Virus record (IMG/VR): IMGVR_UViG_2585427728_000007
Source: a virus
Lineage: Duplodnaviria; Heunggongvirae; Uroviricota; Caudoviricetes
Reading direction: 5' to 3' (one strand)
DNA length: 42,114 nt
In this document: in pieces, positions 23,001-36,505 of the stretch
Layout: each line of letters opens with the position of its first letter
Numbering within the stretch: position 1 is the first letter of the stretch
Made by a program: the position numbers and the translations under genes
The notes under the pieces: model-generated
Databases searched by the model: none
The model's input: only the letters and a program-made list of their open reading frames with translations
What the model was told of the DNA's origin: nothing

Positions 23001-23438
23001 TCATCGAAGGCATTGCGTCCTGATGTACTCCTGCAGGTAGTTAACCTGCGCGGTTATCCTGTCTATTCCACTTCGGAGACGGTAATAATTGAGTTCAGCA
23101 TCTGCTGTAAGTCTTGGGCTTTCTCCATCGCCCATGCTGCTGGCTCCGGTCGTTGACTTTGCACAGGTGGCGGCGACTTGCAGGCGCTTACGCCCAGCAG
23201 AAACATCAGCACGGAGACTTTCGATAGTCGCGTTAGCATCAGCAAGCTCCTTTGTGTATCTGGCGTCTAGTTCTGCTACATCACGTTGACGCTTCTGCAT
23301 GTCAGCGATGATGGATGCGGCTTTGTCGCGCTGCTCTTTGTAGGCGATGGCGTTATCACGGTAATGATTAACAGCCCATAACAGGCAAACGATGATGCAG
23401 ATAACCAGAGCGGAAATAATCGCGGTGACTCTGCTCAT
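23001..23438 (-). CDS. Rz: i-spanin Rz
   Basis: 145 aa; N-terminal transmembrane segment [23 protein letters not shown] as in lambda Rz, followed by a coiled-coil periplasmic domain; immediately downstream of the endolysin gene. Confidence 0.8.
23063..23245 (-). CDS. Rz1: o-spanin Rz1 (embedded in Rz in the +1 frame)
   Basis: 60 aa ORF wholly inside Rz; lipoprotein signal with lipobox LGVSAC followed by a Pro-rich region ([13 protein letters not shown]), as in lambda Rz1. Confidence 0.75.
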
Positions 23439-23911
23439 ACCTCAATCTCTCTGACCGTTCCGCCCGCTTCTTTGAATTTTGCAATCAGGCTGTCAGCCTT
23501 ATGCTCGAACTGACCATAACCAGCGCCCGGAAGTGAAGCCCAGATATTGCTGCAACGGTCAATTGCCTGACGAATATCACCGCGATCAATCATCGGTAAA
23601 GCGCCACGTTCTTTAATCTGTTGCAGTGCCACAGCGTCCTGGCTTTTCGGAGAGAAGTCTTTCAGGCCAAGCTGCTTACGATAGGCATCCCACCAACGGG
23701 AAAGAAGCTGGTAACGCCCGGCGGCTGTTGATTTGAGTTTTGGGTTTAGCGTGACAAGTTTGCGAGGGTGATCGGAGTAATCAGTGAATAGCTCTCCGCC
23801 TACAATGACGTCATAACCATGATTTCTGGTTTTTTGACGTCCGTTATCAGTTCCCTCCGACCACGCCAGCATATCGAGGAACGCCTTACGTTGATTATTG
23901 ATTTCCACCAT
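23435..23911 (-). CDS. R: Endolysin (lambda R-type lytic transglycosylase)
   Basis: 158 aa; [53 protein letters not shown]... is near-identical to the lambda R protein as recalled. Confidence 0.9.
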
Positions 23912-24218
23912 CTTCTACTCCGGCTTTTTTAGCAGCGAAGCGTTTGATAAGCGAACCAATCGAGTCAGTACCGATGTAGCCGATAAACACGCTCGTTATA
24001 TAAGCGAGATTGCTACTTAGTCCGGCGAAGTCGAGAAGGTCACGAATGAACCAGGCGATAATGGCGCACATCGTTGCGTCGATTACTGTTTTTGTAAACG
24101 CACCGCCATTATATCTGCCGCGAAGGTACGCCATTGCAAACGCAAGGATTGCCCCGATGCCTTGTTCCTTTGCCGCGAGAATGGCGGCCAACAGGTCATG
24201 TTTTTCTGGCATCTTCAT
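23895..24218 (-). CDS. S: Holin / antiholin (lambda S-type, dual start)
   Basis: 107 aa; [39 protein letters not shown]... is near-identical to lambda S, including the Met1-Lys-Met3 dual-start motif. Confidence 0.9.
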
Positions 24219-24460: not shown

Positions 24461-24536
24461 TGGTGCTGGTTAACGGACTTGAACCGCTACCCATTCGCTT
24501 ACAAGGCGACCGCTCTACCATTGGAGCTAAACCAGC
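24461..24536 (-). tRNA. tRNA, anticodon TGT (Thr) by manual fold
   Basis: Minus-strand 76 nt GCTGGTT-TA-GCTC-CAATGGTA-GAGC-G-GTCGC-CTTGTAA-GCGAA-TGGGT-AGCGG-TTCAAGT-CCGTT-AACCAGC-A-CCA; perfect 7 bp acceptor stem, GTTCAAGTC T-loop, U33 and A37 flanking TGT, encoded CCA. Confidence 0.65.
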
Positions 24537-24541
24537 ATGTT

Positions 24542-24616
24542 TGGCGGGACAGCGTGGACTCGAACCACGATAAGAAGGTTAACAGCCTTCCGTAATGACC
24601 TTTATACGACTGACCC
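24542..24616 (-). tRNA. tRNA, anticodon GTT (Asn) by manual fold; atypical D-arm
   Basis: Minus-strand 75 nt GGGTCAG-...-GAAGG-CTGTTAA-CCTTC-TTAT-CGTGG-TTCGAGT-CCACG-CTGTCCC-G-CCA; perfect anticodon and T stems, GGTTCGAGTCC T-arm, one T-T mismatch in the acceptor stem, D-loop lacks the usual GG. Confidence 0.55.
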
Positions 24617-24671
24617 AAATAAAAAAAAGCCACCGTTGCAACTTAAGAGTCACTAACGGCAGCTTACATCT

Positions 24672-25184
24672 TTAAACGGTATGATATTTCATTCTGGCTG
24701 CCTCAAAAGCCGCAGCGGCAAGTTCGGCAGTGTCATGGTATCCAAGGTTAATACACTTTCCAGACGCATTAATTCTTGCTCTCCATTTCCCGTACTTAGC
24801 ATCCCAAGACACGCCACGGTATCCAGATTTATTATTCTTCTGAATTTTCCTGTTTTGCATATTTTCGGAATGAGTGACAAGACGAAGATTTGATATCCGG
24901 TTATCTGTTCTTACCCTGTTGATGTGATCAATAAAACCATCGGGCATGGTGCCATAAACAATCAACCATGCCAGTCTGTGAGCAGGGTATGCTTTACCAT
25001 TAATCATAATCATTAAATACCCATCAGAATTTATTGATGAGCATTTCTTGAAAGCAAAACGAGAGTTCCATGTCAAAGTGGTCCTCTCTCTCCCCTGCCT
25101 CCATCTCCAGTGAAAGTCGCCTGATGATGGATTGTAATCAACAACAGAAAGCACCATTTCTGGCGTTAATTTTATTTCTTTCAT
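24672..25184 (-). CDS. HNH homing endonuclease with AP2-type DNA-binding domain
   Basis: 170 aa; HNH motif ...DGFIDHINRVRTDNRISNLRLVTHSENMQN... plus AP2-like ...GYRGVSWDAKYGKWRARI...; AT-rich gene sitting between Q/pR' and the tRNAs. Confidence 0.75.
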   Translation of the reverse strand: MKEIKLTPEMVLSVVDYNPSSGDFHWRWRQGRERTTLTWNSRFAFKKCSSINSDGYLMIMINGKAYPAHRLAWLIVYGTMPDGFIDHINRVRTDNRISNLRLVTHSENMQNRKIQKNNKSGYRGVSWDAKYGKWRARINASGKCINLGYHDTAELAAAAFEAARMKYHTV

Positions 25185-31257: not shown

Positions 31258-31554
31258 TCAGAATTGCATATCAATTTGCTCAGAATCCTCGGTGGCAGCC
31301 GGGGATTTTTTCTTTGCGATTCCATCCAATGCATACTTAAAAGCCCTGCTAATCGGACTGATGTCTGATGCCATTCCGAAAGCACACAAGACCGAAGCAA
31401 TAAATCTCCAGTCCGTTCTGCTTATCTTCGATTCATGACAGCCAATCATCTTTGCCAGACCGCGCTGGGTAAGCGTTGACAGGTTGATGAGTAAATCTGT
31501 TTCTGCGCGATCAACGTCGCGCTGTGATAGTTTGCTGTAACTTGTTTGTTCCAT
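31258..31554 (-). CDS. cII: CII-like transcriptional activator
   Basis: 98 aa; HTH region LTQRGLAKMIGCHESKISR and C-terminus KKKSPAATEDSEQIDMQF resemble lambda CII (C-terminus ...KKRPAATERSEQIQMEF as recalled). Confidence 0.8.
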   Translation of the reverse strand: MEQTSYSKLSQRDVDRAETDLLINLSTLTQRGLAKMIGCHESKISRTDWRFIASVLCAFGMASDISPISRAFKYALDGIAKKKSPAATEDSEQIDMQF

Positions 31555-31691: not shown

Positions 31692-31925
31692 TTATGCTGC
31701 TGATGCTCTACGCGATACGAACACCAGGTTTTCCTTTTTCACGGGTTTATAGGCCGTGAAATTACGAGTAGCTTCTTCGATTGCATTCGCTTTATCAGGG
31801 GAAGCTCTTCGAAATCCATATGCAATCTGGTCAAGATAGCCAACTGAAGTTTTCGCTAATGCGGCGAGTCGCTTCCATTCCTCACTAGAAGCCTCTTTTC
31901 GCCAGCGTAGTAGTTCATTACTCAT
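31692..31925 (-). CDS. cro: Cro-like repressor (HTH protein divergent from cI)
   Basis: 77 aa; HTH segment KTSVGYLDQIAYGFRRASPDKANAIEEA; divergently transcribed from cI across the operator region; GGAGG Shine-Dalgarno. Confidence 0.65.
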   Translation of the reverse strand: MSNELLRWRKEASSEEWKRLAALAKTSVGYLDQIAYGFRRASPDKANAIEEATRNFTAYKPVKKENLVFVSRRASAA

Positions 31926-32038: not shown

Positions 32039-32743
32039 ATGGAAAACAAAGATATTCGCAAATCGAATCTGGCGTTTTTGCTAGATGAGCATAAAAAAAT
32101 CGCGGGTAACACTAATGCAAGCTTTGCCGATAAGCTTGGGGTTAGCCCTTCTCAACTCACGCAAGTCTCCGGTGAAAAAAGCACTCGAAACATAGGGGAT
32201 AAACTAGCAAGAAAATTTGAAGCCGCACTTGGGTTACCTAATGGGTGGCTTGATTTGGTACATGATGTAACACCAATTGCATCATGCTCAGATTCTTTAA
32301 CTTTTGTCGGTCAGGTAAGAAAAGGGTTAGTGCGCGTGGTTGGTGAGGCAATTCTTGGTGTTGATGGTGCCATCGAGATGACCGAAGAGCGCGATGGGTG
32401 GCTCAAAATTTATAGCGATGATCCAGATGCCTTTGGCCTTCGTGTGAAAGGAGACAGCATGTGGCCTAGAATAAAATCAGGAGAATATGTACTCATTGAG
32501 CCTAACACCAAAGTATTCCCGGGTGATGAGGTGTTTGTCAGAACCGTTGAAGGACACAACATGATTAAGGTTCTTGGCTATGACAGAGATGGAGAATACC
32601 AATTTACAAGCATCAACCAAGACCACAGGCCAATAACGTTGCCTTATCATCAAGTAGCAAAGGTGGAGTATGTGGCTGGTATTCTGAAGCAATCTCGCCA
32701 TCTGGATGACATCGAGGCAAGGGAGTGGCTGAAAAGTTCGTGA
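32039..32743 (+). CDS. cI: CI-type repressor (N-terminal HTH, C-terminal S24 LexA-like peptidase domain)
   Basis: 234 aa; HTH around FADKLGVSPSQLTQV; C-terminal domain with the Ser (GDSMWP) and Lys (MIKVLG) of the autocleavage dyad; divergent from cro. Confidence 0.9.
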   Translation: MENKDIRKSNLAFLLDEHKKIAGNTNASFADKLGVSPSQLTQVSGEKSTRNIGDKLARKFEAALGLPNGWLDLVHDVTPIASCSDSLTFVGQVRKGLVRVVGEAILGVDGAIEMTEERDGWLKIYSDDPDAFGLRVKGDSMWPRIKSGEYVLIEPNTKVFPGDEVFVRTVEGHNMIKVLGYDRDGEYQFTSINQDHRPITLPYHQVAKVEYVAGILKQSRHLDDIEAREWLKSS

Positions 32744-32812
32744 CTTCATCGTCCCATAGCTGATAGCCAGTGGCCTGAAGAGACGTTTGGATGATTTTAA
32801 GGAAATATCTTC

Positions 32813-33253
32813 ATGAGAGAAGAAAAAATAATAACAATCTACACAACGGCGGTAAAACCCGGGCTGGCAATCACTCCTTTTATGACACCAGATCCTATAA
32901 TAGTGTCGGAAGAATACCCTTGTTCCGGCTCATTTTACCTAACTGCAATAATGTACTTCGAGCACGAAAAAAAATACACTACCGAACTTGATGTCGTATT
33001 CAATGGAGAATCGGTTTTACCTGATATCTCTAGCAATCAAGAGCAACTGCAAACATTTATGTTTTCTCCTGTCAATGAAAAATATGTTGTGGTTGGCACA
33101 TATCTTTTCGTTAAAAACATCAAACTTATAGAAACAGGAACATATGACATAATTTATCGCATCTTTGAAGACATTGATGGTAATCTTAGCGAAGTTATTG
33201 ATGAAAAAAAATGCGCTCTTATTTCAACCACCCCGAACAGAGATAAGGAATGA
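32813..33253 (+). CDS. Hypothetical protein, first gene of the cI-adjacent accessory cassette
   Basis: 146 aa; AT-rich coding sequence; ATG preceded by AAGGA; no terminator between the cI stop and this gene; no recognisable domain. Confidence 0.6.
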   Translation: MREEKIITIYTTAVKPGLAITPFMTPDPIIVSEEYPCSGSFYLTAIMYFEHEKKYTTELDVVFNGESVLPDISSNQEQLQTFMFSPVNEKYVVVGTYLFVKNIKLIETGTYDIIYRIFEDIDGNLSEVIDEKKCALISTTPNRDKE

Positions 33254-33606
33254 AACGACATCTGTACGCTGTGCCTCTTGACAGGAGTAAAGTTGATAAT
33301 TTTCCACATAACCACCATAATGATGAGACATATGGTGGTGGTAACGGTGGAGGTGGTGACATGTTACAGCGCATAAAAATTCTTGAAGATAAAGTCGCAA
33401 CCATGGCGACCGACATCGCTGTAATTAAGTCTAACTATGCAACATCTGCCAATGTAGAATCTGTTAAAACAGACATAGCTAATGCAAAAGCAGAACTTCA
33501 CAGCGCAATGAGACTCCAAGCCATGGCTATTATTGGTTCAGTTCTTGCAGCCGTTGGAACTGGTGTTGGGTTAATAATAAAAATGATGCCATCACTACCT
33601 CACTAA
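33250..33606 (+). CDS. Hypothetical membrane-anchored coiled-coil protein, second gene of the cassette
   Basis: 118 aa; ATGA overlap with the upstream gene; Gly-rich stretch YGGGNGGGGD, predicted coiled coil (LQRIKILEDKVATMATDIAVIKSN...VKTDIANAKAELHSAMRLQ) and a single C-terminal hydrophobic helix AMAIIGSVLAAVGTGVGLIIKMM. Confidence 0.6.
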   Translation: MKRHLYAVPLDRSKVDNFPHNHHNDETYGGGNGGGGDMLQRIKILEDKVATMATDIAVIKSNYATSANVESVKTDIANAKAELHSAMRLQAMAIIGSVLAAVGTGVGLIIKMMPSLPH

Positions 33607-33616
33607 GAATCTACAC

Positions 33617-33644
33617 AACCCGGCCTCAGCGCCGGGTTTTCTTT
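33617..33644 (+). terminator. Rho-independent terminator ending the cI-cassette operon
   Basis: AACCCGGC-CTCAGC-GCCGGGTT followed by TTCTTT, beginning 11 nt after the stop of the 118 aa gene. Confidence 0.65.
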
Positions 33645-33822
33645 GCCTCTCGATCCCCCACCTAAAAAACATAACTCATTGTATTTATTGAAAAACTGAT
33701 TGATACAACTTGCTAAACCACGCAATCCAGATCTCCCTCAAATCTCTTTATTTATCCTGTCGAATTCCTACAACAAAATAAAACACCATAAGAATCAATA
33801 CGATATTTGAAAATCAAAAGAA

Positions 33823-33866
33823 TTTATCATTTTGCTATTGCCATTAATTTATCATTCCGATAAAGT
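33823..33866 (+). promoter_or_regulatory. Left operator region (oL) with pL candidate
   Basis: 17 bp site TTTATCATTCCGATAAA (33848-33864) with perfectly inverted outer hexamers, plus a weaker site at 33823-33839, same motif as at oR; candidate pL -35 TTGCCA (33838-33843), 17 bp spacer, -10 TAAAGT (33861-33866), overlapped by the operator. Confidence 0.5.
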
Positions 33867-33934
33867 TTGCCCATCAGCAGGACGCACTACTCACCAGGGC
33901 GGTGAATATACAACGATTCGAATATGAATCTACG

Positions 33935-33949
33935 GCGCTGACAAAGCGC
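33935..33949 (+). promoter_or_regulatory. nutL boxB hairpin (GCGCU-GACAA-AGCGC)
   Basis: GCGCTGACAAAGCGC: 5 bp stem with GACAA pentaloop, the P22-type boxB as recalled; lies between pL and the N-like gene. No clear boxA identified. Confidence 0.6.
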
Positions 33950-34210
33950 AATAACCAAAGTGAACTTTGGGGTGTGGTGAAGCCAGCTAGTCACTGGCAA
34001 GTGCTTACCTACTGTTGAGCGGTGAAGCGCTCCCAACGCTAGCAATAGCGTGGACGAGATGGGGAGCCGCGGGCGATAAGGCCGCCATAACGCGCACGTT
34101 GTCGCATGGAAAAATCACTGGGGTGCCGGTTATACCCCTCCGAATGAGACTCAACAAGCTGGAGCTAGACTACCAGCCACCACACCACCAAAGTTCATCA
34201 GGAGGTCTAT

Positions 34211-34594
34211 ATGACACGCAGAACTCAGTTCAAAGGCAATTCACGTTCTCGTCGTCGTGAGCGTTTAAAGGCAAAGGCATTAGCTAACGGCGTACTGGCC
34301 CGCGAAGAAGCAATAAGTTCAGAAGTATTACACCGCCCTACTCTAAGCAGAGCGCAGATTCAGGCTAAAGGTACTCACGAAACGCCTGAGCGCATAGAAG
34401 ACGCTAAGCCAATTAAGTTCATGGCACAGGACGTGATCTGGCAACAGAAAGAATACAGACGCAATCTGGAGCGAGTGGCCATTGTGTACGCGAATGAGTT
34501 TGGACATAAGCAACCAGAAACTGGTGTATGTCTTCCAAACGTAGCCATTTACGCGGCAGGCTACCGGAAATCAAAACAACTGACAGCAAGATGA
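34211..34594 (+). CDS. N: N-like transcription antiterminator (P22 gp24-type)
   Basis: 127 aa; N-terminal arginine-rich motif GNSRSRRRERLKAKALA; C-terminus LPNVAIYAAGYRKSKQLTAR resembles P22 N as recalled; first gene downstream of pL/nutL; GGAGG Shine-Dalgarno. Confidence 0.65.
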   Translation: MTRRTQFKGNSRSRRRERLKAKALANGVLAREEAISSEVLHRPTLSRAQIQAKGTHETPERIEDAKPIKFMAQDVIWQQKEYRRNLERVAIVYANEFGHKQPETGVCLPNVAIYAAGYRKSKQLTAR

Positions 34595-35393: not shown

Positions 35394-35497
35394 TATGAAT
35401 AAGCACTGTGTATTCATTCCAACGAGTGAATACACGGAGCAATGTCGCTCGTAACTAAACAGGAGCCGACTTGTTCTGATTATTGGAAATCTTCTTT

Positions 35498-35524
35498 GCC
35501 CTCCGATGTGAGGGCGATTTTTTT
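35498..35524 (+). terminator. Rho-independent terminator in the pL operon
   Basis: GCCCTC-CGATGT-GAGGGC followed by GATTTTTTT, ending 13 nt before the ATG of the coiled-coil gene. Confidence 0.55.
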
Positions 35525-35536
35525 GATGGAGGATAT

Positions 35537-36505
35537 ATGAGTGAAGTAACAGATTTAGTTGTTATTGAAAAAGCAAATGCAATGACTGTATTTCAGTCTG
35601 CCGACCAGATTGAAGAAATCCTTCAAAAGGTTGAACGTGAAGTTATGTCCTTTGTGCCTGATATCACAACGGCAAAGGGCAGAAAGGAGATCGCTTCTCT
35701 GGCGTATAAAGTTGCGCAGACGAAAACATATCTCGATGGTCTTGGAAAAGACCTTGTTGCTGAACTGAAGGAAATTCCAAAGCTAATTGATGCCAACCGC
35801 AAGACAGTGCGTGATCGCCTTGATGAGCTGAAATCCAAGGCACGCCAGCCTCTTACTGATTATGAGGAGGAACAGGCACGGATTAAAGCCGAAGAAGAAG
35901 CTAAGGCAGCAGCTGAAGCTCTCGCAAAGCAAATTGAGTCTGACCATGAAATAGCTATTTTGATGGATTGCGAATTTGACCGCCAAAGAGAAGAGGCAAG
36001 ACTCAAAGCGGAGCAGGAAAAGCGAGAGCATGAAGAACGCTTAAAAAGAGAAGCTGAAGAGAAAGCCAGAGCAGAAGCCGAAGCAAAGGCAAAAGCCGAA
36101 ATTGAAGCAGCAGCAAGGCGAGAAGCAGAAGCTAAGGCCGCAGCGGAACGTGCAGAGCGTGAACGTATTGAAGCCGAGCAACGAGCACAGCGCGAAGCAA
36201 AAGAGGCAGCAGAACGAGCTGAAAGAGAAAAGCAGGCGGCAATTGAAGCAGAACGCCGAAAAGCACAGGAGGAGGCTGAACGAATCCGGCGCGAGGCTGA
36301 AGCAAAAGAGCAAGCCAGAATAGCAGAAGAAAAAAGAATCAAGGAAGAAGAAGAGTGTAGAGCAAAGGATAAAGCTCACCGGAAAGAAGTAAATAACAAA
36401 ATACTTGCTGACCTTATCAAGGTTGGCGCATCAGAAGATGTTGCTAAAAATATCATAACAGCCATCGTAAAAGGCGAAGTATTCGCAACAAAAATAACCT
36501 ACTAA
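35537..36505 (+). CDS. Hypothetical charged coiled-coil protein (TolA-like Ala/Glu/Lys/Arg-rich repeat region)
   Basis: Start taken at ATG 35537 (MSEVTDLVVIEK...) with GGAGG; the longer ORF-track start would translate through the terminator; about 200 aa of AEAKAKAEIEAAARREAEAKAAAERAERE-type low-complexity helix. Confidence 0.55.
   Translation: MSEVTDLVVIEKANAMTVFQSADQIEEILQKVEREVMSFVPDITTAKGRKEIASLAYKVAQTKTYLDGLGKDLVAELKEIPKLIDANRKTVRDRLDELKSKARQPLTDYEEEQARIKAEEEAKAAAEALAKQIESDHEIAILMDCEFDRQREEARLKAEQEKREHEERLKREAEEKARAEAEAKAKAEIEAAARREAEAKAAAERAERERIEAEQRAQREAKEAAERAEREKQAAIEAERRKAQEEAERIRREAEAKEQARIAEEKRIKEEEECRAKDKAHRKEVNNKILADLIKVGASEDVAKNIITAIVKGEVFATKITY

Follow-up and report, generated by a model that had tools for sequence, protein, structure and literature searches.

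A mosaic two-gene cassette in the cI–N slot of a temperate phage is a candidate membrane-tethered defence system

Two small overlapping genes, ORF1 and ORF2, form an exchangeable cassette between the cI repressor and the N antiterminator of an E. coli prophage, the 42,114-nucleotide viral sequence analysed here (the window). We suggest that they encode a membrane-tethered two-part complex that most likely protects the lysogen against heterologous phages, a tentative reading to which we give somewhat less than an even chance. Among the roles weighed below, defence appears to be the best supported, and we regard the cassette as a credible candidate.

Results and Discussion

The cassette in the cI operon

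The locus has the following features.

32039–32743, + strand: cI repressor, H-19B-type immunity (Peptidase_S24, 3.8e-16; phrog_4, 6e-38)
32744–32795, + strand: conserved post-cI backbone spacer (blastn matches to mEp506, WGPS9 and AU5Stx1 end at 32790/32795)
32796–33615, + strand: cargo ('moron') of ORF1 and ORF2 only, missing from phages sharing the cI/N backbone
32799–32803, + strand: Shine-Dalgarno-like AAGGA, 9 nt 5' of the ORF1 ATG (read from the sequence)
32813–33253, + strand: ORF1, 146 aa (ORF list and sequence)
33250–33606, + strand: ORF2, long form, 118 aa, its start overlapping the ORF1 stop (ORF list and sequence)
33617–33644, + strand: intrinsic terminator closing the cI operon, an 8-bp stem (6 GC) followed by a T-run
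33838–33866, + strand: pL-like hexamers TTGCCA-17-TAAAGT amid operator-like repeats (sequence scan)
34211–34594, + strand: N antiterminator, the right landmark of the slot (Pfam N_peptide, 3.1e-15; phrog_271, 1e-38)

An earlier note on this DNA had described two ATGA-overlapping genes behind cI, with no terminator between, at the position equivalent to rexAB and in an operon layout with the repressor. The ORF list and a sequence scan bear this out. ORF1 and ORF2 are on the cI strand and overlap at 33250–33253, the scan found no terminator-like site in the 69-nt gap between cI and ORF1, and the first terminator downstream is reached only at 33617, ahead of pL. This hairpin (33617–33638), followed by TTCTTTG, is the sole terminator-like site on the + strand. 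The pL-like site lies 5' of N, the position annotated in phage epsilon34, and an Rfam search returned two tRNAs only. We presume that the cassette is transcribed from pRM of cI. The cassette rides in the repressor operon as a horizontally exchanged accessory unit, and this layout suggests that its products are probably made in lysogens.

The window cI is 98–99% identical in DNA sequence to the cI genes of mEp506, Stx phages and H-19B; mEp506 and the Stx phages with 98–99% identical cI hold cargo other than ORF1/ORF2. Homology to these other-cargo phages breaks off at 32790–32795 and restarts at 33616, leaving a cargo of 820 bp (about 32796–33615) in the cI–N slot. The unit had been said to end in a strong terminator, and the hairpin and T-run are indeed present, but the terminator is part of the backbone rather than of the cassette because homology resumes at 33616; the block 33616–33982, terminator included, is 96–98% identical in phages with different cargo.

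The description of the block as AT-rich and horizontally acquired also holds. The GC content of the cassette is 38.7%, that of cI 44.7% and that of the window 50.0%, which places the cassette at the 1.8th percentile among windows of equal length. Only 4 of 5,426 complete E. coli genomes contain the cassette, it is found beside two different cI alleles, and phages with the same backbone have HicA-HicB-HicC, HigB-type genes or almost nothing in the slot. The position as mosaic-slot cargo, the AT-rich composition, the patchy distribution and the two cI alleles support the view that the cassette was acquired horizontally.

The cI–N slot is a mosaic hotspot that also houses RexAB and BstA (PMC8585504). 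BstA, HicA-HicB-HicC (TAC) and HigBA share this hotspot with ORF1/ORF2, and expression in the lysogen is presumed for all of them. The pair is a recurrent occupant of a slot that has already been the source of RexAB, BstA and TA-type defences. Stk of phage 933W is another occupant. The proteins of BstA, HicA-HicB-HicC, HigBA and 933W Stk are unrelated to ORF1/ORF2, and the nuclease, kinase and DNA-binding Abi mechanisms of other slot cargo have no parallel in the pair.

ORF1 is a predicted β-sandwich

Neither ORF1 nor ORF2 gave a meaningful match in Pfam, NCBIfam, PADLOC or PDB sequences, and a PHROGs search placed them in families of unknown function only, in line with the earlier statement that ORF1 has no recognisable domain. 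The dN/dS values are low, 0.13–0.18 for ORF1 and 0.05–0.17 for the ORF2 core, and the two proteins have 27 and 67 homologue clusters, respectively, so these are real genes and not chance ORFs. Both genes are under purifying selection.

The predicted structure of ORF1 is a confident stand-alone Ig-like β-sandwich, and its fold match is generic, without a specific structural relative. Eight members of the ORF1 family have weak matches to EMP24/GOLD (best 4.4e-4), which merely repeat the assignment as a β-sandwich. We propose that ORF1 is a detachable 'head' or specificity subunit.

ORF2 is a predicted tail-anchored coiled coil

The following features lie within ORF2.

33250–33333, + strand: residues 1–28, disordered N-terminal peptide (KRHLYAVPL...PHN; pLDDT 51–57)
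33293–33321, + strand: promoter-like TTGATA-17-CATAAT inside ORF2, 5' of the internal start (10/12 consensus, the best in the region)
33334–33357, + strand: residues 29–36, Gly-rich linker GGGNGGGG, a joint for recombination between modules
33349–33353, + strand: internal Shine-Dalgarno GGAGG, 7 nt 5' of the Met38 codon
33361–33606, + strand: ORF2, short form, 81 aa, from the nearly invariant Met38, comprising coiled coil and membrane anchor
33436–33453, + strand: β-layer-type motif Y63-A-T-S-A-N68 interrupting the coiled coil (family consensus YATKxD)
33520–33579, + strand: residues 91–110, C-terminal transmembrane helix AMAIIGSVLAAVGTGVGLII (Kyte-Doolittle; helical in AF2)

The Gly-rich tract, the coiled coil and the single C-terminal transmembrane helix noticed earlier in ORF2 agree with the present predictions; the tract covers residues 29–36 and a hydrophobic segment covers 91–110. 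Helices are predicted at residues 36–64 and 66–112, with a break in the AF2 helix at residue 65. The Kyte-Doolittle profile has a 19-residue maximum of 2.23 at residue 92 and a single hydrophobic segment, and all ORF2 relatives have a hydrophobic segment at the C-terminus. The membrane helix is followed by only about 8 residues, and we infer from the model that ORF2 is tail-anchored and lies almost entirely in the cytoplasm. The proposed layout of a soluble protein with a single-pass membrane protein is thus in agreement with the structure prediction and the hydropathy profile. The AF2 model is of the monomer; the coiled coil is probably parallel and trimeric.

The β-layer motif of trimeric alpha/beta coiled coils is defined as [aliphatic]-A-T-K-[polar]-[DE], an interruption of the heptads (PMC4786415). 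[quoted passage not shown] The window copy, YATSAN, is degenerate, with A-T kept and K and D/E lost. Coiled coils with this β-layer include Tcar0761 and the DUF1640/CCDC90-MCUR1 membrane proteins; in the ORF2 family a stalk and a C-terminal membrane anchor come after the motif, the order also seen in DUF1640. However, the ORF2 family has a single motif rather than repeats, its first residue is the aromatic Tyr, and ORF2 itself carries no head domain, whose place appears to be taken by a separate protein. The likeness of ORF2 to such coiled coils is that of a local motif and does not imply homology.

The same features could be read as those of a lysogenic-conversion factor unrelated to phage, in which an anchored trimeric stalk with its head scaffolds or regulates a host inner-membrane protein, for example in transport or envelope stress, much as DUF1640/MCUR1-type proteins scaffold membrane complexes. 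The combination of β-layer and C-terminal anchor is common to DUF1640/CCDC90-like proteins, and DUF1640/MCUR1-type proteins have been described as scaffolds, not pores (PMC4786415). Three family members have weak matches to Pfam CCDC90-like, and a domesticated, partner-less 78-aa copy of the ORF2 core lies in a core chromosomal locus, beside TerC and a DUF903 lipoprotein. On the other hand, the fast swapping of heads and peptides and the patchiness in E. coli (the 4 of 5,426 genomes) appear more like an arms race, and the known cargos of the slot are defence or TA systems. We consider this function quite unlikely.

A probable internal start within ORF2

The GGAGG that precedes Met38 is present at the exact 7-nt spacing in 39 of 55 unique ORF2 relatives, and at the Met38 position these 55 have 52 ATG and 3 GTG start codons. 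At codon −4, 42 of 49 Gly codons are GGA, versus 5/43, 12/48 and 4/34 at the other Gly positions (Fisher p = 1e-6). Homologues of 78–81 aa, one of them a chromosomal solo gene, start at the equivalent of Met38, and the frame 5' of Met38 is open for at least 26 codons in all 59 of the 59 unique ORF2 relatives. This pattern indicates that the Gly tract of ORF2 also serves as a conserved internal ribosome-binding site, and the conserved GGAGG before Met38 therefore points to a second, shorter ORF2 product. This codon-level evidence is strong; the two starts are separated by 37 codons, compared with 2–3 in the holin dual-start motif. Promoter-like sites in the region are as numerous in total as shuffling of the sequence would predict, which leaves the one inside ORF2 as no more than a lead.

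The internal ribosome-binding site, the β-layer motif and the two unrelated partner families described below go beyond the earlier note.

A family with exchangeable partners

The window ORF2 has the Gly tract, the Met, LE...D-AVI-SNYAT and the C-terminal transmembrane helix that define its family (alignment, HMM), and the window ORF1 is a coupled upstream partner of the ORF1 family (ATGA overlap, iterated HMM, alignment). The pair is found in at least 62 distinct versions in prophages of E. coli, Salmonella, Enterobacter, Citrobacter, Serratia, Pantoea and other Enterobacterales. A coupled small ORF lies upstream of the ORF2 relative in 82 of 85 viral loci, and 54 of these partners belong to the ORF1 family by iterated HMM. 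In about 22 of 62 unique pairs, the partner is an unrelated CxxC...CxxC (zinc-ribbon) protein; hhalign detected no kinship between the ORF1 family and the zinc-ribbon partners (probability 0.2%). The gene preceding the pair is Peptidase_S24 in 27 and HTH_3 in 24 of 54 loci. The pair is usually directly behind a phage repressor, and the order cro / cI - partner - ORF2 is kept in Pantoea, Serratia and Enterobacter prophages. A minority of the family lies in a P22 immI-like 'ant moron' region, which in P22 houses sieA (PMC2629481).

The N-terminal peptide of ORF2 (residues 1–28) evolves fast (dN/dS 0.34–0.9), and its motif varies with the partner family. Eighteen pairs of loci combine an ORF2 core of at least 85% identity with partners of less than 35%, and 5 pairs show the reverse; in both discordant sets, the N-terminal peptide tracks the partner. 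The overall correlation of partner with N-terminal-peptide identity, in a mirror-tree style comparison, is weak (Spearman 0.16 vs 0.08). We propose that residues 1–28 are a docking peptide for ORF1. The stalk-anchor is conserved across prophages, and the head, from the Ig-like or the zinc-ribbon family, is exchanged along with the proposed docking peptide that matches it.

The mirror-tree comparison is informative only in the discordant recombinant pairs. Physical adjacency alone could account for the co-segregation of the peptide with the partner.

Comparison with RexAB and with epsilon34

The position of ORF1/ORF2 is identical to that of lambda RexA-RexB, after cI and before the terminator and pL, and co-oriented with cI. 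In both pairs the soluble protein comes first and the membrane protein second, and expression from the repressor promoter in lysogens is presumed. RexB has four transmembrane helices and is activated by a DNA-binding sensor. ORF2 differs from the polytopic RexB in having one C-terminal transmembrane helix and a long coiled coil, and ORF1 is an Ig-like sandwich whereas RexA is DNA-binding; neither the Pfam search nor the predicted structure revealed a DNA-binding signature in ORF1. The absence of likeness to RexA and RexB that was claimed earlier agrees with the PADLOC results, in which 5,027 models, including RexA/RexB, gave no match to either window protein at E ≤ 1. A PADLOC search with 124 pair members returned coiled-coil noise only (DruC, LmuB, JetC) and no Rex match. 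The pair is thus without a counterpart in defence-system databases. A further likeness is a possible internal route to the membrane component alone, by pLIT in lambda and by the internal Shine-Dalgarno and start in ORF2; RexAB-type pairs also include PP_5643-5644 of P. putida (PMC12894663).

Salmonella phage epsilon34 has the same order as the window, repressor gp46 - gp45 - gp44 - OL/PL - N. Its gp45 matches the broad ORF1 HMM (8.8e-29) and gp44 the ORF2 HMM (1.6e-25), so that gp45-gp44, like the pair of phage g341c, are true family members. They are distant ones, with about 15% identity of gp45 to ORF1 and a different variant of the C-terminal anchor in gp44. In 2008, the authors of the epsilon34 study remarked that gp45-gp44 follow the repressor 'like rexA and rexB' and that databases offered no match to them (PMC2629481). 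The cassette had been called novel; this is correct in that it belongs to no known family, but gp45-gp44 are the same pair, and their rexAB-like position had already been remarked upon. The window proteins had no tblastn match in 50,697 cultured-phage records, from which another family member as query retrieved epsilon34, g341c and S107. Literature searches (XhlA with defence, protein accessions, phage mEp506) found no functional study of the family, and literature and accession searches found no phenotype, expression or interaction data for its members.

ORF2 and XhlA

ORF2 had also been likened to XhlA. Both ORF2 and Pfam XhlA (PF10779) are small proteins of phage origin with a coiled coil followed by a single C-terminal membrane helix, and several ORF2 homologues are named hemolysin XhlA in NCBI/UniRef. 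The comparison is weakly backed by some relatives, 5 of 62 having sub-threshold matches to Pfam XhlA at E ≤ 0.01 (best 5.2e-5; one relative scores 19.8 bits against a gathering threshold of 34.7). The window ORF2 has no match at E ≤ 1.

Could ORF2 be a lysis accessory in the lytic cycle of its own phage? The sub-threshold similarity of these relatives and a dual start that recalls holin/antiholin genes would fit an XhlA-like holin helper of the kind known from B. subtilis PBSX, whose lysis function requires xhlA, xhlB and xlyA together (PMC5589764). However, xhlA shares a lysis cassette with the genes for the holin XhlB and an endolysin (PMC5589764), whereas ORF2 belongs to a repressor operon, lies upstream of the pL transcript and outside it, and has a different partner. 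The phage has its own lysis genes, Phage_holin_3_1 (23895–24218) and Rz (23001–23438), on the other strand and 9 kb away, with a presumed endolysin inside this holin-(endolysin)-Rz cassette; ORF2 is thus not the lysis gene of the phage. ORF2 also has no holin match in Pfam, and the family is linked throughout to repressors and not to lysis genes. A lysis role is therefore very improbable.

That ORF2 is a haemolysin or virulence factor, secreted or on the cell surface, as implied by the name 'hemolysin XhlA', is to us scarcely credible. Beyond the names of the homologues, a virulence role has been proposed for an XhlA-domain gene by cI in Mannheimia lambda-like phages, a proposal that cites no experimental support (PMC4553209). 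The name derives from the Pfam label, and ORF2 is a 118-aa tail-anchored, mainly cytoplasmic protein with no signal peptide or secretion partner. A defence function, if borne out, would also correct the misleading annotation behind this virulence speculation.

Proposed mode of action

In the defence reading that we favour, the ORF1 head would dock on the N-terminal peptide of ORF2 as an exchangeable recognition unit. The internal ribosome-binding site would give a head-less ORF2 isoform, which could join the stalk assembly and set an activation threshold. Once the head had recognised a component of a phage, the stalk-anchor would perturb the inner membrane, and depolarisation or premature lysis would result in abortive infection. 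Against this reading stand the absence of PADLOC matches beyond coiled-coil noise, the degenerate β-layer motif of the window protein, the generic nature of the Ig-like match, the scaffold rather than pore role described for proteins of similar architecture, and the partner-less chromosomal copy of the ORF2 core. The more ambitious proposal, that the pair represents a new, widespread prophage defence family of the Enterobacterales, a 'plug-in' receptor with a trimeric tail-anchored stalk, swappable heads, an isoform-set threshold and membrane disruption, is in our view rather doubtful as a whole.

If defence is the true function, the architecture is distinct, with an exchangeable soluble head on a conserved anchored coiled-coil stalk of two isoforms, and the cassette would be a small 0.8 kb model for the coupling of recognition to the membrane, a question that is 60 years old for RexAB. 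If it is not, the cassette is still a clean modular moron with a tract of Gly codons that doubles as a ribosome-binding site.

The lysogen could also be protected without its death, by superinfection exclusion in which the complex, on the cytoplasmic side of the inner membrane, blocks DNA entry or an early membrane-associated step of the incoming phage, as with P22 SieA or T4 Imm. The repressor-linked synteny and the evidence for a lysogen operon fit this equally well as they do abortive infection, the stalk is closer to scaffold proteins than to pore formers, and the family members in the P22 immI-like region are in the home of sieA (PMC2629481). However, the prediction places nearly the whole protein in the cytoplasm, with about 8 residues past the helix. 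The partners are devoid of signal peptides and one family of them consists of zinc ribbons, so contact with a periplasmic injection machinery is unlikely. Homology to known Sie proteins is also not demonstrable. We regard exclusion as unlikely.

Compared with defence through the membrane, an addiction or toxin-antitoxin-like pair, in which ORF1 neutralises the membrane toxin ORF2 and the prophage is thereby stabilised, is improbable. Two small coupled genes, the second for a small membrane protein, would suit such a system, and HicAB and HigB-type TA genes occupy the slot in sister phages. However, neither ORF1 nor ORF2 matches a toxin or antitoxin family in Pfam, NCBIfam or PADLOC, nor do ORF1 and the zinc-ribbon partners bear the signature of a DNA-binding or antitoxin family. 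The ORF2 core also exists without a partner on the chromosome, from which it follows that the stalk-anchor alone is not obviously toxic. In E. coli C 236-04A, an IS2 breaks the 5' end of ORF1 and leaves ORF2 intact, which also speaks against a toxin, but the same IS parts the pair from pRM.

Gene organization and cargo of the cI–N interval

In the window, which represents a lambdoid prophage, ORF1 and ORF2 overlap directly after the cI repressor gene, as the following features show:

31258–31554, minus strand, cII
31692–31925, minus strand, cro
32039–32743, plus strand, cI (Peptidase_S24)
about 32796–33615, cargo
32813–33253, plus strand, ORF1 (146 aa)
33250–33606, plus strand, ORF2 (118 aa; ATGA overlap with ORF1)
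33617–33638, terminator hairpin, then a T-run
33838–33866, pL-like hexamers
34211–34594, N (127 aa; Pfam N_peptide, 3e-15)

The 69-nt gap between cI and ORF1 contains no terminator-like or plus-strand promoter-like site. The GC content of the cassette is 38.7%, below the 44.7% of cI and the 50.0% of the window, and falls at the 1.8th percentile among stretches of equal length. Thus, the layout, signals and composition described in the earlier note, an overlapping pair following cI with no intervening terminator and AT-rich relative to it, are confirmed in every element. Comparison with relatives gives dN/dS values of 0.13–0.18 for ORF1 and, for ORF2, 0.05–0.17 (residues 38–118) and 0.34–0.9 (residues 1–37), showing that both are genuine genes. 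Over 32744–33700, the cassette region, the sequence matches E. coli ECONIH5 at 100% identity.

Phages whose cI and N are 98–99% identical carry in this interval HicA-HicB-HicC (mEp506) or a HigB-type set (Stx2a_WGPS9), or nearly nothing (AU5Stx1). That ORF1 and ORF2 are themselves a TA-like addiction pair is improbable. Homology with the phages carrying other cargo ends at 32790–32795 and restarts at 33616, which defines the cargo as ORF1, with an AAGGA ribosome-binding site, and ORF2, and nothing else. The cassette had been thought to end in a strong terminator; a terminator does follow, but it belongs to the conserved backbone. Among 5,426 complete E. coli genomes this cargo is rare, present in 4, and is accompanied by two different cI alleles. 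The cI–N interval is a known mosaic hotspot in which rexAB and bstA occur, behind a promoter that ranks among the most active in prophages (PMC8585504).

In E. coli C 236-04A (locus L003, 2681–3909), an IS2 copy separates cI from the cassette; it truncates the 5′ end of ORF1, cuts the pair off from the repressor promoter and leaves ORF2 intact. In RefSeq, the identical prophage has no gene annotation for the N ORF, only a 69-nt 'regulator, incomplete' pseudogene at its 3′ end. The pL-to-N leader holds a second short nonhomologous patch (33983–34169), flanked by backbones that are 94–98% identical; the patch may represent a small site for cargo or a variable part of the nutL region. A 340-aa ORF in the early-left operon (35483–36505, plus strand) has a long repetitive helical region rich in Glu, Ala, Lys and Arg (AEAKAKAE...ERAEREK...) and no Pfam match.

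Relatives of the pair

Relatives of ORF2 are encoded at 85 IMG/VR loci, and at 82 of them the end of a small co-oriented ORF overlaps the start of ORF2 or lies only a few bases from it. By iterated HMM, 54 of these 82 partners belong to the ORF1 family. Most others (about 22 of 62 unique pairs) are 90–131-aa CxxC...CxxC zinc-ribbon proteins, unrelated to the ORF1 family (hhalign probability 0.2%). The preceding gene is usually a co-oriented repressor (Peptidase_S24 in 27 and HTH_3 in 24 of 54 upstream neighbours), and the order cro/cI–partner–ORF2 recurs in prophages of Pantoea, Serratia marcescens and the Enterobacter cloacae complex. Salmonella phage epsilon34 has the order repressor gp46–gp45–gp44–OL/PL–N, with gp45 in the ORF1 family (8.8e-29) and gp44 in the ORF2 family (1.6e-25).

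The cassette was described as novel in the earlier note. However, the 2008 epsilon34 genome paper had already remarked that genes 44 and 45 are placed 'like rexA and rexB' behind the repressor and lacked database matches (PMC2629481), and cargo of two genes at the rex position, expressed in lysogens and encoding a soluble and a membrane protein, is of a well-known kind. As far as our searches show, what has not been described is the conservation of the pair as a family behind diverse repressors, its two interchangeable partner families, the predicted β-layer coiled-coil stalk and the predicted dual start of ORF2.

Some pairs, a minority, are instead found in 'ant moron' regions of the P22 immI-like type, beside antirepressor and tail-spike genes. 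At L024, L028, L034, L056 and L059 the pairs adjoin antirepressor and tail-spike or Dit genes. Similarly, in Salmonella phage S107 (L101, 2224–3375), the zinc-ribbon partner and ORF2-type gene (orf25-orf26) are outside an immunity region, 3′ of two Rha-family genes and 5′ of tail genes. The ORF2 relative at L037 (3458–4354) has 298 residues, including a long additional N-terminal region. The protein encoded before it has a signal peptide and probably accounts for the single Rap1a (T6SS immunity) match (6e-17) when the family was scanned against Pfam; it may be an unrelated neighbour, or the head may be arranged differently here.

In Pseudescherichia/Escherichia sp., a locus of the core chromosome carries a 78-aa homologue of the ORF2 core (residues 38–118) without a partner. 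It begins at the Met38 equivalent, is flanked by a DUF903 lipoprotein gene on one side and TerC/MutH on the other (L089, 5001–5237; also L090–L092), and appears to be a domesticated stalk-anchor, that is, coiled coil and membrane helix. A host-directed scaffold or conversion function for the phage pair is unlikely.

Predicted structures of ORF1 and ORF2

Neither protein has a match in Pfam, NCBIfam, PADLOC or PDB sequences, and no defence-database model matches the pair. The ORF1 family comprises only 59 clusters among 1.84 billion representative proteins, essentially all stand-alone proteins of 143–153 aa. Foldseek matches of the ORF1 model in the PDB include the self-complemented chaperone-usher pilins MyfA and PsaA (15–16% identity, query-normalised TM 0.31–0.37). 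These matches raised the idea that the N-terminal 'HLYAVPL' peptide of ORF2 may dock onto modelled ORF1 as a donor strand. The features of ORF2 are:

residues 1–35, predicted disordered
residues 29–36, Gly tract
residues 36–64 and 66–112, predicted helices
residues 91–110, hydrophobic segment

With a profile of 51 ORF2 relatives, the sole PDB match above noise was the α/β coiled coil of Tcar0761 (5apz_A, E = 1.4e-5), with the nearly invariant 'SNYATKxDV' of the family aligned onto its 'MATKDD' β-layer motif. The β-layer consensus is [aliphatic]-A-T-K-[polar]-[DE] and such structures are trimers; DUF1640 membrane proteins have the same motif at the start of a stalk ending in a membrane anchor (PMC4786415). 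In ORF2 the helix is predicted to break at residue 65, within the β-layer-type motif, which is degenerate in the window protein (YATSAN). The XhlA-like architecture suggested earlier is reflected in weak similarity, below threshold, of 5 of 62 relatives to Pfam XhlA (E ≤ 0.01), but the window ORF2 itself has no XhlA match. An XhlA-domain, one-TM gene adjoining cI in Mannheimia lambda-like phages was read as a haemolysin, without experiment (PMC4553209); for ORF2 this role is extremely unlikely.

Modularity and a probable internal start in ORF2

The N-terminal peptide of ORF2 differs with the partner: '...hLYxVP...G.lvE....PHN..yGGGNGGGDDM' with ORF1-type and '...dNVxxxxFPxHGGGG..DDM' with zinc-ribbon partners. 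Among loci with ORF1-type partners, 18 pairs of loci have ORF2 cores at least 85% identical, partners below 35% identity and equally dissimilar N-terminal peptides; 5 show the reverse pattern, again with the peptide tracking the partner. These discordances indicate recombination joints at the Gly linker. Such joints split the pair into two modules, partner plus N-terminal peptide and coiled coil plus anchor. This agrees with a docking-peptide model in which ORF1 would bind ORF2, although physical adjacency alone predicts an identical pattern of exchange.

Met38 is nearly invariant, and homologues of 78–81 aa start exactly at its position. GGAGG lies exactly 7 nt 5′ of the Met38 ATG in 39 of 55 unique DNA sequences, and the Gly codon at −4 is GGA in 42/49, compared with 5/43, 12/48 and 4/34 at other Gly positions (Fisher p = 1e-6). 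A conserved internal Shine-Dalgarno sequence best accounts for this constraint at synonymous sites. The upstream region is also coding, since its frame is open for at least 26 codons in 59/59 relatives, keeps Gly despite synonymous changes and contains conserved peptide motifs. Thus, ORF2 probably has two products, one of 118 aa that is coupled to ORF1 and a shorter one of 81 aa (33361–33606) that lacks the head. A promoter-like site just 5′ of the internal start (33293–33321) is the best match in the region, statistically no different from chance.

Proposed function

The complex is predicted to face the cytoplasm, given that signal peptides are absent from the partners, that zinc ribbons make up one partner type and that the anchor lies at the very C terminus. 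We tentatively favour a lysogen-expressed, membrane-tethered head–stalk complex that guards against other phages: the exchangeable head (the partner) would recognise, a signal would be relayed to the membrane and an abortive-infection-type response would follow there. Exclusion that is not lethal is a less probable reading. We found no experiments on any member of the pair family in the literature; the pair is a candidate well suited to experiments rather than a demonstrated system.

ORF2 was rejected as the lysis gene of this phage because a separate holin and Rz, flanking a presumed endolysin, are encoded 9 kb away on the opposite strand, which also makes a lysis accessory role very unlikely:

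23001–23438, minus strand, Rz
23435–23911, minus strand, ORF between holin and Rz
23895–24218, minus strand, holin

Just upstream of this lysis cassette (24461–25184, minus strand), tRNA-Thr(TGT) and tRNA-Asn(GTT) lie beside an HNH_3 plus AP2-domain endonuclease ORF (24672–25184).
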